A DNA stretch of 64,000 bases from an uncultured delta proteobacterium (GCA_963724765.1 CAVRVY010000001.1:1088001-1152000), one strand, 5' to 3'. Shown: positions 22,690 to 28,656, numbered from the stretch's first letter. A program made the numbers and translations. The notes: a model not told the origin generated them from the letters alone.

Positions 22690-23557
22690 ACGTTTGAGTA
22701 CGCCTGCCGGTCAGGCGCGGCAGCAGCGCTAAAATGACCAGCGCCATTACCCACGCCGCCGCGCCGCTGATCAGCGCCGGCCGATCGTAACCGACGATCC
22801 AGTGGGGCAGCGCCGCTCCCGGCGCATCGCTGAAGGGCCATAGCTTTACGCCGAGCACCAGACCGGCATGCAGTCCGGCCGAGAAATAAACATTGCCGGT
22901 CACCAGGAACGCCTCACCCAACACCAGGCCGAGCAGAAAGAGTCCGAATAGCGCGGGCAGTGCCGCTGCGGGATGCGCCAGTTGCGCGAGGCTCGCGTAG
23001 AGATTGTAAAAGCCCGCCGCCGCGTCGAACCCGGTCAGGTAGAATCGCGCGGGCGAGCGCACCAGATGCGCCAGCGCATAGATCGCCGCGCTGATCGCCA
23101 GCGCACCGGTGCGGCCGAAGTCCGCGACCATCCCGCCCAGCAAGAAGGCGCGGAAGAATCCCTCCTCGATTATCGCGATCAGGATTGCCCCGGCCACGTA
23201 TTTTGGCGCGCGCGCGAGCGCCTCGCCGGCCCGCATCCCGTTGCGTCCGCCGAACGCCGCGCCGAGCGCGAGCAGGATTCCAATCACCGCCGCCGCGACC
23301 AGCAATCCGCGCAGCAAGGCGCCGAGATTATCCAGCGGGCGCGCGAAGCCGCGCCGCAACAGCCGCGCGACTCCCAGTTGGCGCGCCCACAGCGTCAGCA
23401 TCACCGCCAGCGCGGCCATCACGGTGCGATCGAAGATGCGTGGGAACGGGAAATGGTACCCGGCGGCCACAACCGCGGTTGCCACGAGCGGTGCGATGAG
23501 CGCCGCCGCGGCGGCTGCGAGCAAAAGCGCGATCGTTAGTCTGAGCGTGAAGGGCAT
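22688..23557 (-). CDS. CPBP family intramembrane metalloprotease
   Basis: EEGFFR, YALAH and GLHAG motifs. Confidence 0.85.
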   Translation of the reverse strand: MPFTLRLTIALLLAAAAAALIAPLVATAVVAAGYHFPFPRIFDRTVMAALAVMLTLWARQLGVARLLRRGFARPLDNLGALLRGLLVAAAVIGILLALGAAFGGRNGMRAGEALARAPKYVAGAILIAIIEEGFFRAFLLGGMVADFGRTGALAISAAIYALAHLVRSPARFYLTGFDAAAGFYNLYASLAQLAHPAAALPALFGLFLLGLVLGEAFLVTGNVYFSAGLHAGLVLGVKLWPFSDAPGAALPHWIVGYDRPALISGAAAWVMALVILALLPRLTGRRTQT

Positions 23558-23690
23558 CGTGGATGAGCGTTCGCGTTCGGCTTGGCGCACAATCCCACGA
23601 GCGATATCGGTTGCAGGCGCGCCATGCAAGCGGCGATATTGAGATGACAGTCGCTGCGAACGATATTGAAGATCGGCGAGGAGGGCTCGT

Positions 23691-24470
23691 ATGGACCTGG
23701 GACTCAAGGGCAGGGCCGCGCTGGTGACCGGCGCGAGCATGGGAATCGGCGAAGCGGCTGCGATTGAGCTTGCGGGCGAGGGATGCAACCTCGCGATCTG
23801 CGCGCGCCACGCCGACCAGCTTGCCAAGGTGCGCGATGAGGCCGTTGCGCGGGGCGTGCGATGTCTGGTTGCCGAGTGCGACATCCGCAAGCCCGACGAT
23901 ATAGCGGCCTTGATAGACGAAGTCGGCCGCGCTTACGGCCGCCTCGATATCCTGGTGAACAACGCCGGCGCTGCTACCCACGGCACCTTCGCCTCGTTGA
24001 GCGACGAGCAACTGCTGGCGGACTACGAGCTGAAGGTTCTCGGACAGTTGCGATGCACGCGCGCCGCGCTGCCATTGCTGGAGCGGAGCCCGGCGCCCCG
24101 CGTGATCAACGTCAACGCGATCGCAGGGCGGGTGGTGATGCCCGGGCTGTTCGCCACCGCCACCCATCGCGCATCGTGCTACGCGCTTAGCAAGGCGCTC
24201 GCCTGGGAACTCGCGGACCGCAAAATCCTGGTAAACTCGGTGAATATCGGGCTCGTGCATACCAACCAGATCGAACGTGCCCATGCGCGCCGCGCGCCCG
24301 ACGTCCCGCGGGAGAAATTCATGGCGCAGGCGGCGCAGATCGTGCCGCTCAAACGCTTCGGCGAACCGCACGAGGTCTCGGGCCTGATCGCGTTTCTGGC
24401 GTCGGACCGCGCGGGCTTCATCACCGGCGCATCGATCGACGTCGGCGGCGGGCAAGGCGCCCACGTGTAA
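23691..24470 (+). CDS. SDR family oxidoreductase (SDR1)
   Basis: TGASMGIG, LVNNAG and FITG..VGGG motifs. Confidence 0.92.
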   Translation: MDLGLKGRAALVTGASMGIGEAAAIELAGEGCNLAICARHADQLAKVRDEAVARGVRCLVAECDIRKPDDIAALIDEVGRAYGRLDILVNNAGAATHGTFASLSDEQLLADYELKVLGQLRCTRAALPLLERSPAPRVINVNAIAGRVVMPGLFATATHRASCYALSKALAWELADRKILVNSVNIGLVHTNQIERAHARRAPDVPREKFMAQAAQIVPLKRFGEPHEVSGLIAFLASDRAGFITGASIDVGGGQGAHV

Positions 24471-24567
24471 GGCGCCGAGAAGACCCGATGGTCACGTTTG
24501 ACGGCTCTTGCAACCGATGCGATCGAGAGGGTTGAAATTGCTACCGCGGCCGCGCGAGTATTGAACA

Positions 24568-24780
24568 ATGAAATTCGTTGTGACGCTCCAAAAGGGCGAG
24601 GACGGGTTCATTATTGCTGAGTGTCCGGCTCTCCCGGGATGCATAACGCAGGGCCGGACCAACGAAGAGGCGCTCGCCAACATCCGCGAAGCGATTGAGC
24701 TCAGCCTGGAGAGCCGCATAGCGCTCGGTATGCCGCTATCCATGGAGATCGCCGAAGTAGAGGTTTCGGCGATTGGGTGA
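24568..24780 (+). CDS. hicB: HicB family antitoxin (short, no DNA-binding domain)
   Basis: GF.AECPALPGCITQG.T.EEAL.NIREAI. Confidence 0.9.
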   Translation: MKFVVTLQKGEDGFIIAECPALPGCITQGRTNEEALANIREAIELSLESRIALGMPLSMEIAEVEVSAIG

Positions 24781-25007
24781 TGGCCCAGCTTCCTGTCTGC
24801 TCCGGTGCCGAAGCAATCCGGGCGTTCGAGCGGGCGGGGTGGATTCGGGTTCGTCAACGCGGCAGCCACGTCTCTCTGCACAAGCCCGACATGCGGGATC
24901 TCCTTACCGTGCCGCTTCATCCAACCCTTGATCGCGGGATGCTTCGAAGCCTTATTCGCAAGGCCGGACTCTCGGTCGAGGAGTTTGACGCTCTGCTGGC
25001 TGGTTGA
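24777..25007 (+). CDS. hicA: HicA family toxin
   Basis: RQRGSH..LTVPLH..L.RGML.S.I..AGL. Confidence 0.9.
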   Translation: MMAQLPVCSGAEAIRAFERAGWIRVRQRGSHVSLHKPDMRDLLTVPLHPTLDRGMLRSLIRKAGLSVEEFDALLAG

Positions 25008-25029
25008 GTTGAGCCGTCAATAGATCGCT

Positions 25030-25095
25030 CGCGCTCTCGGGGTTGCGTTGCGGTCCGAGCACGACGTCGGCGGCGGGCAAAGCGCCCACGTGTGA
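25030..25095. repeat. Chimeric relic: SDR2 3' end (25030-25064) fused to SDR1 3' end (25062-25095)
   Basis: 32/35 identical to 26435-26469 and 32/34 identical to 24437-24470; joined at a shared CGA. Confidence 0.9.
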
Positions 25096-25159
25096 TCCAT
25101 CGCCTTGCAAACGCCTTGGTCGCGGCGATCGCGCCGCCAAGAGCGCAAGGGGAGGCTAA

Positions 25160-26419
25160 ATGGCCATCGATTTCACTTTGAGCGAGGGGCAACAACAACT
25201 CCAATCGGATGCGCGGGCTTTCGCCCGCTCCGTTCTCGGCGGTGTGAAGGAGAGAATCGCGAAGATTGCCAAGCCAGAGGAGCGATTCTATGCGACCCGG
25301 CCTTTTTACCGCGAGATGGCGCAGGCCGGATTCGTGAAATCGCTGATCCCCAGCCAATACGGCGGCGCGGGGCTGTCGACCATCGATCTCGCGCTCGCCG
25401 CCGAAGAGCTCGCCGCCGTTGACGTCAACGTTCCGACCACGCTCCTTGCGACCGGTCTCGGCCTTCAGCCGGTGATCCAGTTCGGCTCCGAGCGGCACAA
25501 GCGCGAATTTCTTCCCGACTTCGTCCATCACGGAGAGGATCGCCTGGCGGCATTCGCCTTTACCGAGGTGACCGGCGGCGCCAATTTTGATTCACCCGAT
25601 CCCGCCACCGGCGTGCGCACCTTAGCCCGGCGCGAGGGGGACGAATGGGTCATCAGCGGGCACAAGCATTACACCACCAACGGCACCGGATGGGACGGCA
25701 AGGGTGCGCATCTCTACACGGTCATTTGCCGGACCGATCTTAACCAGCCTCCGCACGAGTCGCTCGCCGTCATCGCGGTGCCAGGAAACAGCGAAGGCAT
25801 CCGCATAACCGGGATGATCGATACGCTGGGACATCGCGCCGTAAGCTCGCCGCGCATCCACTTCGACGATGTGCGTGTCCCGGCCGCAAACCTTATCGGC
25901 CGCCCCGGCGACGGAGCTGCGATCATCTCGCGCTCATTCGCGTGGACCGCGGCTCTTATCGGCGCTGCGTGCACCGGCGTGATGCGTTCGGCGTTCGATT
26001 GCGCGCTGAATTTTGCCAGGACCGACAAGCGCTCGGGGCCGGTGCCGGTGATCGAGTACCAGAACGTGGGCTACATGCTGGCGGACCTGAAGATGAGGAT
26101 CGAAGCCTCACGCTATCTCACCTGGAAGGCGTGCCATTACTTCGATGCCACCGGCGGGCTCGGCGAGGAGCTGCCGATCATCGCCAAGGTTTATTGCTCG
26201 GAACTTGCCGTGCAGGTGGTTTACGACGCGATGCGGCTGGTCGGTATCGATAGCTACACCGACATGCAGCCGTTGGCGGGGTTGATGCAGGACGCGCTCG
26301 CCTTTCCGCTCTATGACGGCGGCAACATGGGCGTCAGGCGCCGGCAGTTGCATGCGATCTTCCGCTCACCCCGGTACGATCCGATGGCGGCCGCGGAAGG
26401 GCGCCCGCCGGTGCGCTGA
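25160..26419 (+). CDS. Acyl-CoA dehydrogenase superfamily flavoprotein, nitroalkane oxidase-like
   Basis: RFYATRPFYRE, GWDGKGA and PLYDGGNMGVRRRQ match fungal NAO signatures as I recall them. Confidence 0.8.
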   Translation: MAIDFTLSEGQQQLQSDARAFARSVLGGVKERIAKIAKPEERFYATRPFYREMAQAGFVKSLIPSQYGGAGLSTIDLALAAEELAAVDVNVPTTLLATGLGLQPVIQFGSERHKREFLPDFVHHGEDRLAAFAFTEVTGGANFDSPDPATGVRTLARREGDEWVISGHKHYTTNGTGWDGKGAHLYTVICRTDLNQPPHESLAVIAVPGNSEGIRITGMIDTLGHRAVSSPRIHFDDVRVPAANLIGRPGDGAAIISRSFAWTAALIGAACTGVMRSAFDCALNFARTDKRSGPVPVIEYQNVGYMLADLKMRIEASRYLTWKACHYFDATGGLGEELPIIAKVYCSELAVQVVYDAMRLVGIDSYTDMQPLAGLMQDALAFPLYDGGNMGVRRRQLHAIFRSPRYDPMAAAEGRPPVR

Positions 26420-26428
26420 GGGCTAGCG

Positions 26429-27160
26429 CTAACGCGCGCGCTCGGGGTTGCGTTGCGGCTCGAGCACGATTTCTACCGGACATGCGCGCACTGGCGCGCG
26501 CAGCACGGACATCACCGCCTCCGCCACGTCCTCGGGTGCGAGCATCAGTGAGCGGTCGAGATGCTTGTTGTGCGGGATGAGCGCGGTGTCGGCCAGTCCC
26601 GGAATTATCACCGCCAGCTTCACGCCGCTCGAGCGAAGCTCGGCAAAGGCGGCGCGGCTGAACGCGACCAGCCCGGCCTTGGCCGCCGCATAGACCGTCT
26701 CTCCAGCCGGTGTGCTGTGCGCCGCTGCCGAAGCGATATTGACGATCGCGCCGCCGCCGCTTTTGACCATTCGCGTCGCGGCCAGGCGTGCAAGCGCGAT
26801 CGGCGCGCGCAGATTCACGGCCAGAATGCGGTCCTGCGTCGCCGCGCTGGTCTTGAGCAGCGGCGTTCGCGGCGGAGCCCATCCGGCATTGTTCACCAGC
26901 ACGTCGACTTGTCCGAAATGCTCGAGCGCCGTATCGAATAGCTCCTGTGGGCTCTCCTCGCCGGCGAGATCGATCAGCACGATGAGCGATCGCGCCGGCT
27001 CGAGGCCCGAAAGACGCCGCGTCTGTTCGAGTTCATCGAAGCTGCGCGCGGCCAAGCATAGTGCGTAGCCCTCGCGTGCGAGCGCCAGCGCTGTCGCGCG
27101 GCCGATTCCGCGTCCGGCGCCGGTTACCAGCGCAACGCGCTGCGTCTTTTGCCCTGCCAT
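26429..27160 (-). CDS. SDR family oxidoreductase (SDR2)
   Basis: TGAGRGIG, LVNNAG and YAAAK motifs. Confidence 0.92.
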   Translation of the reverse strand: MAGQKTQRVALVTGAGRGIGRATALALAREGYALCLAARSFDELEQTRRLSGLEPARSLIVLIDLAGEESPQELFDTALEHFGQVDVLVNNAGWAPPRTPLLKTSAATQDRILAVNLRAPIALARLAATRMVKSGGGAIVNIASAAAHSTPAGETVYAAAKAGLVAFSRAAFAELRSSGVKLAVIIPGLADTALIPHNKHLDRSLMLAPEDVAEAVMSVLRAPVRACPVEIVLEPQRNPERAR

Positions 27161-27300
27161 CCCGATATGCGGCGGCCCTGCCGCCGGTCAGAAACGCAGC
27201 TTGCACGATCAGGCCGACTTCCACAAACTGTGGTGGACACGGCCGCGGGCTGGGGGCTTCGTGAGGGCTGCGGCGCGCGCTGGGGAGGCAGGCAGCAACG

Positions 27301-28656
27301 ATGAATCCGCAGGTTTTTCGCGAGTACGATATTCGCGGCATTGTCGAGCGCGACTTCGACGACGACCTCGTCGTTAGTCTCGGACGCGCCTACGCGACGA
27401 TGCTCAAGCGGGCGGGCAAGGCCACGATTACGCTTGGCCGCGACTGCCGGCTGTCCTCGGACCGCCTGTTCGGGCTGCTGAGCGACGGACTGCTGCAAAG
27501 CGGCATCAACGTGGTCGACATCGGTGTCGTGCCCACCCCGCTTCTGTACTTTTCGGTGATTCACTGGCGGATGGACGGCGGCGCGATGATTACCGGCAGT
27601 CACAACGCCGCCGAATACAACGGCTTCAAGCTCGGCGTGGGGCCCTCGACCATGTACGGCGAAGAAATCCAGGAACTCCGGCGCATCATCGAGCGCAAGG
27701 ATTTTCCCGCCGCCGGCGCTCGCGGCGCGCTCAGCACGCGCTCGGTGCATGGCGACTACAACAACTTCATCAAGCGCACCATCACGCTGCGGCCGGGACT
27801 CAAGGTCGCGGTCGACGGCGGCAACGGATGCGGCGGGGTGGTCGCGGCGCCGTTGATGCGCGAGTTAGGACTCGAGACGGTCGAACTGTTCATTGAGATG
27901 GACGGCCGCTTCCCCAACCATCATCCAGACCCCACGGTCGAGGAGAACATGCGCGATCTCATCGCGGCGGTGAAGAGCAGCGGTGCGCGAATCGGGATTG
28001 CTTACGACGGTGACGCCGACCGGGTCGGCGCGGTCGACGAAAACGGCCGTATCGTGTGGGGCGACGAGTTGATGGTCGTGTTCTCGCGCGCGATTCTGCG
28101 CGAGCGTCCAGGCGCTGCGATTATCGGCGACGTCAAATGTTCCAACCGCATGTACGACGACATCACGGCGCACGGCGGCCGCGCGATCATGTGGAAGACC
28201 GGCCATTCGCTGATCAAGAGCAAGCTCAAGGAGGAGCACGCTGCGTTGGCCGGCGAGATGAGCGGGCATATGTTTTTCGCCGACCGCTACTACGGCTTCG
28301 ACGACGCCATCTACGCCTCTTTCCGCCTGCTCGAGATCGTCAGCCGCGAGGGCCGCGGTCTGGCCGACATCCTCGCCGACCTGCCCAAGAGCAGCTTCAC
28401 GCCCGAGATTCGTCTGGATTGCCCCGACGAGCGCAAGTTCGACGTGGTGCGCAAGGCCGCCGACTACTTCCGCGCGCACTACGAGGTGATCGAAATCGAC
28501 GGCGCACGAGTCAAGCTCCCCGGCGGATGGGGCCTCGTGCGCGCCTCGAATACGCAGCCGGCGCTGGTGATGCGCTTCGAGGCGCGCGACGAAAAGACCC
28601 GGGACGAAATTCGCACGCTGTTCGAGAGCAAGCTCAAAGAACTGGGCGCGATGTGA
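27301..28656 (+). CDS. algC: Phosphomannomutase/phosphoglucomutase
   Basis: FREYDIRG, TGSHN, DGDADR and GEMSGH motifs. Confidence 0.95.
   Translation: MNPQVFREYDIRGIVERDFDDDLVVSLGRAYATMLKRAGKATITLGRDCRLSSDRLFGLLSDGLLQSGINVVDIGVVPTPLLYFSVIHWRMDGGAMITGSHNAAEYNGFKLGVGPSTMYGEEIQELRRIIERKDFPAAGARGALSTRSVHGDYNNFIKRTITLRPGLKVAVDGGNGCGGVVAAPLMRELGLETVELFIEMDGRFPNHHPDPTVEENMRDLIAAVKSSGARIGIAYDGDADRVGAVDENGRIVWGDELMVVFSRAILRERPGAAIIGDVKCSNRMYDDITAHGGRAIMWKTGHSLIKSKLKEEHAALAGEMSGHMFFADRYYGFDDAIYASFRLLEIVSREGRGLADILADLPKSSFTPEIRLDCPDERKFDVVRKAADYFRAHYEVIEIDGARVKLPGGWGLVRASNTQPALVMRFEARDEKTRDEIRTLFESKLKELGAM

Follow-up and report, generated by a model that had tools for sequence, protein, structure and literature searches.

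Probable concatenation of two islet alleles through copies of both flanking gene ends in a soil delta proteobacterium

How can two unrelated cargos come to stand in a row in a chromosomal slot that has no integrase, with a fused copy of both neighbouring gene ends between them? The question is raised by a locus in a 64,000-nucleotide (nt) stretch of DNA from an uncultured delta proteobacterium (GCA_963724765.1 CAVRVY010000001.1:1088001-1152000; 'the window', from whose first letter positions are counted unless a contig or locus is named). The window lies on contig C1 of G000, a metagenome-assembled genome of a soil bacterium (5.4 Mb, 4 contigs, contamination estimate 5.2%). At 23.7-27.2 kb two short-chain dehydrogenase genes, SDR1 and SDR2, converge, and between them lie hicB, hicA, a 66-nt scar and a flavoenzyme gene that resembles nitroalkane oxidase (NAO). 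The scar is a copy of the SDR2 end (B') fused to a copy of the SDR1 end (A'), giving the order SDR1-A-hicBA-B'A'-NAO-B-SDR2, in which the flanking genes and both cargos are all intact. The locus is a rare recombination product rather than a cassette system, and it probably arose when two alleles of the slot, one with hicBA and one with NAO, were concatenated, one exchange being homologous and the other illegitimate. Its parts are as follows.

23691-24470, plus strand: SDR1, short-chain dehydrogenase gene, left conserved flank (Pfam adh_short_C2, E 7e-48)
24437-24470, plus strand: A, the final 34 nt of SDR1 with its TAA stop (32/34 to A')
24471-24567, plus strand: left spacer of the hicBA allele, 97 nt (length and collinearity as in the hicBA-only slot of genome G013)
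24568-24780, plus strand: hicB-like antitoxin gene, 70 amino acids (aa) (Pfam HicB_lk_antitox, PF15919, E 2.5e-7)
24777-25007, plus strand: hicA toxin gene, 76 aa (Pfam HicA_toxin, PF07927, E 3e-18; PADLOC HicA-like)
25008-25029, plus strand: spacer on the right of the hicBA allele, with the old SDR2 stop region decayed (collinear with the stretch from hicA to SDR2 in G013, L042 and L043)
25030-25064, minus strand: B', relic of the SDR2 3' end (32/35 to B)
25062-25064, no strand: CGA, 3-nt overlap at the novel B'A' joint (read from the sequence; the parents differ on both sides)
25062-25095, plus strand: A', relic of the SDR1 3' end, with a TGA stop (32/34 to A)
25096-25159, plus strand: 64-nt spacer on the left of the NAO allele (collinear with the stretch from SDR1 to NAO in L046, G001, L053 and G012)
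25160-26419, plus strand: NAO-like flavoenzyme gene, 419 aa, the second cargo (Pfam Acyl-CoA_dh N-terminal, M and C-terminal domains)
26435-26469, minus strand: B, the 3' end of the functional SDR2 (sequence and repeat search)
26429-27160, minus strand: SDR2, short-chain dehydrogenase gene, right conserved flank, converging on SDR1 (Pfam adh_short, E 2e-44; syntenic in relatives)

The composition of the scar, its two match counts, the 3-bp CGA fusion and both translations had been proposed in a first-pass annotation of this DNA, and all of them are confirmed in the sequence. A and A' differ by a G>A change at 25081 and in the stop codon, TAA against TGA; A' still reads DVGGGQSAHV-stop. On the minus strand B' reads VLGPQRNPES, where SDR2 has VLEPQRNPER. 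The 3' end of B' and the start of A' are the same CGA, and the adjoining bases mismatch, so that the overlap is exactly 3 nt. Taken together, 5 of 69 relic positions depart from the full copies, and the relics carry 4 derived changes in 66 nt. The three differences of B' are found only in the relic, B being the genus consensus, while A and A' have in common two codon variants that are absent from every relative and are each other's closest relatives.

B'A' reverses the ancestral order A-spacer-B and is formally the head-to-tail joint of a tandem duplication, but the units it separates are not copies of one another: the two interiors, of 561 and 1341 nt, have no similarity by blastn or tblastx. 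Each unit is bounded by two unrelated sequences, A on the left and B on the right, with no single repeated core. As a chance control, internal copies of the local A and B were sought in 12 further filled slots of relatives. The best matched 16-22 of 36 positions for A and 17-21 of 35 for B; the same control in G000 gave 32 of 36 and 30 of 35. A genome-wide scan for direct repeats (k-mer plus extension; at least 25 nt, within 15 kb; n=407), when restricted to cases in which B' ends no more than 15 nt from the start of A', returned nine pairs of pairs, and only the SDR1/SDR2 locus has unrelated interiors. The other eight were rejected as stacked alleles, being tandem paralogues, internal repeats of one open reading frame (ORF) or plain tandem duplications.

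Whether the joint is real was examined with contigs that had been assembled from individual public sequencing runs (X1, X3, X4 and X5) and aligned to 23000-28000. A 159-nt contig of X4 spans 24967-25125 with no differences, running from the interior of hicA through B'A' into the NAO-side spacer. A 203-nt contig of X1, which belongs to a different study, spans 25016-25201 with three substitutions and two gaps; it is from a slightly different strain carrying the same joint. SDR1 is linked to hicB by contigs of X3 and X5, and NAO to SDR2 by contigs of X1, X4 and X5; at most one of these runs is the source of the assembly. The junction that the first-pass annotation relied on is therefore bridged in runs of two studies and is not an assembly artefact. 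An assembly chimera of two co-existing strains with one allele each might be suspected from the contamination estimate and from the size of the flank copies, which is about that of a k-mer. It is rejected, its probability being negligible, since independently assembled contigs from the two studies contain the joint, one identical over 159 nt and the other differing in sequence, and since the five differences in 69 relic positions are not something that a graph artefact produces.

Both parental alleles survive as separate alleles in relatives. SDR1 orthologues are present in 14 of the 16 other genomes of the genus, where they are syntenic and 86-93% identical in aa sequence, and in four genomes of the family; in the 10-kb surroundings of all of these the order CAAX protease - SDR1 - SDR2 - phosphomannomutase is kept. 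The slot is cargo-free in 13 of these 18 genomes, holds hicBA in one (G013), NAO in two (G001 and G012), another cargo in one (G014, a 531-aa PMT_2-like membrane protein) and a hicA remnant in one (G004). Cargo-free slots measure 5-294 nt, most with a small hairpin spacer that can be recognised as one and the same across clades. The G004 slot (L028 2778-2882) is 105 nt long and includes the last ~50 nt of hicA, which shows that a hicBA allele was deleted there and that empty-looking slots can arise by deletion. Metagenome contigs, some of which probably represent the same organisms as the genomes counted, add to this picture: 20 of 23 orthologous contigs show both slot ends, with 13 empty slots, four with hicBA (L041-L043 and L059) and three with NAO (L046, L053 and L056). 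A and B each occur once in all 18 genomes and 20 metagenome contigs, and no stacked slot or internal relic is found among the 38. The SDR1/SDR2 gap is thus a polymorphic islet in the genus, with empty, hicBA, NAO and at least one more allele, and the single-cargo and other-cargo relatives that the first-pass annotation expected do exist. As a side observation on the flank, SDR1 of L033 (G003) and L034 (G005) aligns as two overlapping pieces in different frames, through a frameshift or an assembly error.

These alleles allow each half of the G000 locus to be read against its counterpart. The G000 sequence runs collinear with the hicBA-only alleles from hicA through the spacer to the final base of B', and with the NAO-only alleles from the opening base of A' through the stop and the spacer into NAO. 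Since each half is collinear with its single allele, the product is allele plus allele, which supports the earlier proposal that an SDR1-hicBA-SDR2 and an SDR1-NAO-SDR2 allele had been concatenated. The gene products agree closely as well. The hicB-like product is 94% identical in aa sequence to the same-slot copy of G013, and the NAO product is 87-93% identical to the slot cargo of G001, G012 and L046. The adjacent hicA and hicB genes overlap by 4 nt, a layout that fits a type II toxin-antitoxin (TA) pair HicA/HicB. The NAO product has an acyl-CoA-dehydrogenase fold, and the label 'NAO-like' is fair because its closest solved structure is nitroalkane oxidase 3mkh (E 1e-81). In G001 the NAO gene has an in-frame TAG at codon 15, a glutamine codon in G000 (L023 2846-2890), either a nonsense mutation or a sequencing error.

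The alleles themselves are old. Between G000 and G013 hicBA is 90.0% identical and the flanks 88-90%; NAO is 86.7% identical between G000 and G001 with flanks at 88%, and 82.2% identical between G000 and G012 with flanks at 78-83%. The alleles are patchily distributed on the tree of the flanking genes, and NAO is present in the earliest-branching member, G012. This agreement of cargo and flank divergence on a patchy tree indicates that the alleles are old and either persist or move together with their flanks. The hairpin spacer shared by empty alleles across clades likewise points to long-lived alleles that are exchanged by way of the flanks. The stacking is a later event. The codon variants common to A and A', together with only four derived changes in the relics, place it within the G000 lineage and between its own alleles, and it is old enough for a few neutral changes to have accumulated and for the joint to be present in two strain variants. 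Left and right flanks do not differ in their identity to the hicBA-bearing and NAO-bearing species, which favours neither side as donor or recipient.

The most economical origin of the locus is one homologous plus one illegitimate exchange. A chromosome with the hicBA allele would have recombined with DNA of the same lineage that carried the NAO allele, and the result would have been addition instead of replacement. The homologous exchange, which we infer, would have taken place inside a conserved flank. The illegitimate exchange has left its joint in the sequence: it would have connected the hicBA allele, 35 nt inside its SDR2 end (B'), with the NAO allele, 34 nt before the end of SDR1, stop included (A'), at a CGA common to both alleles. 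Neither a recombinase nor a specific site would be required. Homologues of Ku, ComEC and DprA are present in G000, and such genes would allow this route, although they are no proof of it.

The genome holds other traces that touch on this process. When any interleaved order of A, B', A' and B among isolated repeats in G000 was accepted, five configurations were obtained. Three were rejected: they are paralogues, repeats within coding sequence or a dispersed repeat between genes in a stretch of lower GC content (C1:601000-612000). The other two are the SDR1/SDR2 locus and a second slot, L205 (C3:644300-648500). The strict scan thus gives the SDR1/SDR2 locus alone and the relaxed scan one more slot, which makes the double-relic form neither unique nor evidently common. 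L205 is bounded by converging genes for an EtfA-like protein and an amidase and contains a copy of the end of each, in the order EtfA, A (30 nt with the stop), a HicB-like ORF, B', a SIR2-like ORF, A', a 21-nt spacer, B and amidase. B' is 60 nt of the amidase end (53/60) and A' is a perfect copy (30/30); between them lie 1.5 kb with the SIR2-like ORF, which is AT-rich and on the opposite strand. The slot is empty in G011 and G012 and holds hicB and a decayed hicA in G009.

G000 has four HicB-like loci and three HicA loci, and two of the HicB-like ones lie in its only two slots with relics of both flanks. At its remaining hicBA loci, L219 and L220, there is no convincing flank relic. At L219 a 23-nt direct repeat (21/23; L219 3098-3120 and 5331-5353, C1:748597-750852) lies around hicBA and a 531-aa gene. 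Across the genus, 30 HicA loci, each with 1.5 kb on either side, were scanned for direct repeats of at least 22 nt. Repeats flank the hicBA module at three of them, lie elsewhere at three and are absent from 24. Besides the SDR1/SDR2 slot, the flanked modules are L247 (1026-1783; G013 contig C13), where the 3' end of the upstream gene, stop included, is repeated exactly over 54 nt directly after hicA, and L237 (1188-1729; G004 contig C9), where hicBA is followed by a 23-nt copy of the upstream gene's 3' end; at both the next gene converges.

Same-slot DNA has also reached another position in G000. A 525-nt ectopic fragment on contig C3 (L040 5311-5835; C3:136310-136834) matches NAO codons 272-419, the spacer and 22 nt of B with 87% identity. 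Over its 149 codons there are 31 synonymous-only differences and 10 that change an amino acid. This mostly synonymous pattern indicates that it evolved in another lineage while still a functional gene and reached G000 as a fragment, so that foreign DNA of the slot does enter G000 illegitimately. Local alignment of the DNA after the ectopic B with six A regions gave no A-like relic (p 0.10-0.83 against shuffles), and a second joint of B to A on contig C3 was rejected, the A-like alignment being no better than shuffles. The surroundings of the fragment (L040 4700-7300; C3:135700-138300) are a patchwork of 70-525-nt pieces that are 76-94% identical to other loci, including a 95-aa N-terminal fragment of phosphofructokinase and a ~100-nt element with many copies across the genus.

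Several observations weigh against a simple additive exchange. Parental alleles of the same species have not been seen. ComEC and DprA are widespread and are not diagnostic of competence. A 3-nt overlap is expected in about one of 20 random joins by our own estimate, so that joining guided by microhomology is hardly proven. The process is rare, since none of the 38 other slot copies is stacked. The ectopic B stops at a position equivalent to 26465 and B' at 26466-26469, and this coincidence of endpoints within 1-4 nt is not predicted by a purely random breakpoint. Contigs of X1, X3, X4 and X5 include none that omits either cargo, but at their few-fold, thin and fragmented cover this weighs little.

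Two other routes would give the same product in more steps. A circle with short flanks, the alternative that the first-pass annotation offered beside homology-anchored illegitimate recombination, could have been formed by excision of A-cargo-B from an allelic chromosome and closure at CGA, and then integrated by a single RecA crossover in A or B, in the manner of Campbell. This would yield exactly the observed order with B'A' as the closure joint; the 1.5 kb with the SIR2-like gene between B' and A' at L205 could be extra backbone left after a crossover in A, and the endpoint of the ectopic B, so close to that of B', would fit a preferred closure point. Against these attractions, the circle needs two rare events, an illegitimate excision that would destroy both donor genes and then recombination on ~35 nt, near the lower limit for RecA. 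Moreover, no circular form, replication gene or recombinase gene for it was found, the ectopic B is followed by no A-like relic, and there is no hairpin or site signature. Such an origin is unlikely, though it has more to recommend it than the remaining route, in which A-cargo-B would have been tandemly duplicated in situ at CGA and one cargo later swapped by homologous recombination. For a duplication of this kind one may cite the form of the joint, the mutual closeness of A and A', and the existence of plain tandem duplications elsewhere in G000, such as a 768-nt unit on contig C4. But the swap would have to cross over within a relic of 34-35 nt, because longer homology on that side would replace the whole duplication, and tandem duplications are unstable without selection; two steps are needed, and the interiors retain no similarity to each other. 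A duplication followed by a swap is accordingly quite improbable, and the additive joining of two alleles remains the favoured account.

A dedicated site-specific system, integron-like or an integrative element with att sites, can be set aside with greater firmness. The resemblance is real: copies of gene 3' ends between cargos look like the att scars of elements that integrate at gene ends, and unrelated cargos in a row with short repeated scars between them recall integron cassette arrays and the stacks of integrative elements linked to tRNA genes. In those systems, however, one expects an integrase, an attC-like fold or a single core, whereas here there are two units whose scars are coding sequence of the neighbours. 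None of the 22 ORFs across 12.8-37 kb of the window, a housekeeping neighbourhood, matches an integrase or transposase (Pfam), as the first-pass annotation had also concluded, and no match to PF00589 (tyrosine recombinase) occurs in the 64-kb window, the nearest on the contig being 118 kb off. Single-strand folds at the joint, A and B are not significant (z +1.53, -0.78 and +1.18 against shuffles), and Rfam gives no relevant match at the locus. The duplications are of different lengths at four slots (23, 30, 34 and 54 nt). The lack of machinery and of a folded site, together with two different bounding sequences, excludes stacking of this type as far as sequence can, and it is rejected as very improbable. 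The count of 0 stacked copies in 38 also speaks against such a system and lends no support to the suggestion that the slot grows like a cassette array.

Why the additive product was kept is a separate question. If the NAO allele simply replaced the resident one, hicBA would be lost, and losing an addiction module would kill the recombinant; if replacement is lethal, only the rare additive recombinants would survive. Precedents exist for both elements of this argument: chromosomal restriction-modification (RM) modules are described as resisting replacement by allelic DNA (PMC3874152, citing Handa 2001), and transformation with a lethal cassette is described as giving tandem merodiploids with both alleles (Johnston 2013, PMC3784515). 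G000 resembles the latter in holding the hicBA and NAO alleles in tandem. The published merodiploids differ in scale, with 100-900 kb between long repeats such as insertion sequence copies, whereas here a slot of 0.6-1.4 kb was joined on a 3-nt overlap. It counts against the argument that L205 lacks hicA and that hicA is frameshifted or truncated in the hicBA-only alleles L041, L042 and L059. In these three hicA aligns in two frames or is shortened while hicB is intact, and the toxin gene appears to be decaying. By analogy with those precedents, retention of the additive product through the lethality of hicBA loss is possible, although we would not rate it as the likelier answer.

A still more tentative suggestion follows from the same argument. 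The repeats of the 'long target duplication' class discussed below may be scars of failed eviction and not insertion footprints, though on balance this is doubtful. Recombination with a module-free or otherwise filled allele would delete the TA pair, so that only additive, half-illegitimate products would survive. If this were so, slots would ratchet upward in content, the module dragging new cargo alongside, and the B'A' scar would be the first example from nature whose product still reveals both of its parental alleles.

Among known kinds of insertion, that with long target duplication is closest to the SDR1/SDR2 slot by the criteria of Furuta 2010. Cases as described in PMC2853133 have no mobility genes, have repeats of >30 nt, frequently overlapping a neighbour's 3' end, and come mostly from competent species; the class is catalogued there without an established mechanism. 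The present locus likewise has an addiction-type module without a mobility gene, inserts of 0.6 and 1.4 kb (<20 kb) and direct repeats of more than 30 nt, A/A' of 34 nt around hicBA plus B' and B'/B of 35 nt around A' plus NAO. In both, the repeat is single-copy in genomes without the insert, often overlaps the 3' end of the neighbouring gene and varies in length, as at the other hicBA or HicB-like slots of the genus with 54, 30 and 23 nt. The cargo here is hicBA and a flavoenzyme, without RM genes, which makes the locus a variant and not a strict member of the class. It differs further in that the scar has copies of both flanking gene ends and is accompanied by a second, unrelated cargo, and together these features show that the 'insert' derives from this very slot in another allele.

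Two other processes provide parts of the picture. Homology-facilitated illegitimate recombination is RecA-dependent and uses matches of 3-10 nt (PMC6382021, describing de Vries & Wackernagel 2002 and Prudhomme 2002). It combines one homologous anchor with one illegitimate joint; here the joint is at a 3-nt CGA, near chance, foreign DNA was added beside a conserved gene, and an anchor would be supplied by the flank. It is known from laboratory crosses, whereas here there is a natural footprint only, and the joint lies inside the homologous region, so that 34-35 nt were duplicated and recipient DNA was not deleted. Replacement flexible genomic islands are described as being exchanged by homologous recombination in conserved flanks (PMC4033161), and they share with the slot a single position, unrelated alternative contents in relatives, conserved flanks and the lack of an integrase. 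Those islands are large and are replaced, whereas this is a tiny islet with an additive outcome and a preserved scar. The literature searched contained no account of two islet alleles joined through copies of both flanking gene ends.

The interest of the locus lies in what it preserves. With both parental alleles kept in relatives and both gene ends at the joint, the product can be read as allele plus allele, and hicBA islets are linked to the 'long target duplication' class. How TA and RM modules without mobility genes arrive, persist and gather neighbours is a long-standing open question, and the locus suggests a testable model for it, in which selection favours additive recombination because replacing an addiction module is lethal. 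It indicates that an islet can gain cargo through host recombination alone and that small TA islands can accumulate without an integrase, which bears on how flexible genome content in uncultured soil lineages is read.

Two minor observations may be added. A scan of 24300-26600 gave no promoter-like and one terminator-like site, at or below the shuffle expectation. Elsewhere in G000, isolated direct repeats of 45-57 nt that resemble parts of tRNA genes occur 10-14 kb apart in five places, C1:459612 (+13.7 kb), C3:820396 (+14.5 kb), C3:936176 (+12.9 kb), C4:621282 (+9.6 kb) and C4:1240778 (+13.3 kb). These are candidate att pairs of integrated elements, and one of them adjoins a tyrosine recombinase match at C4:1241380.

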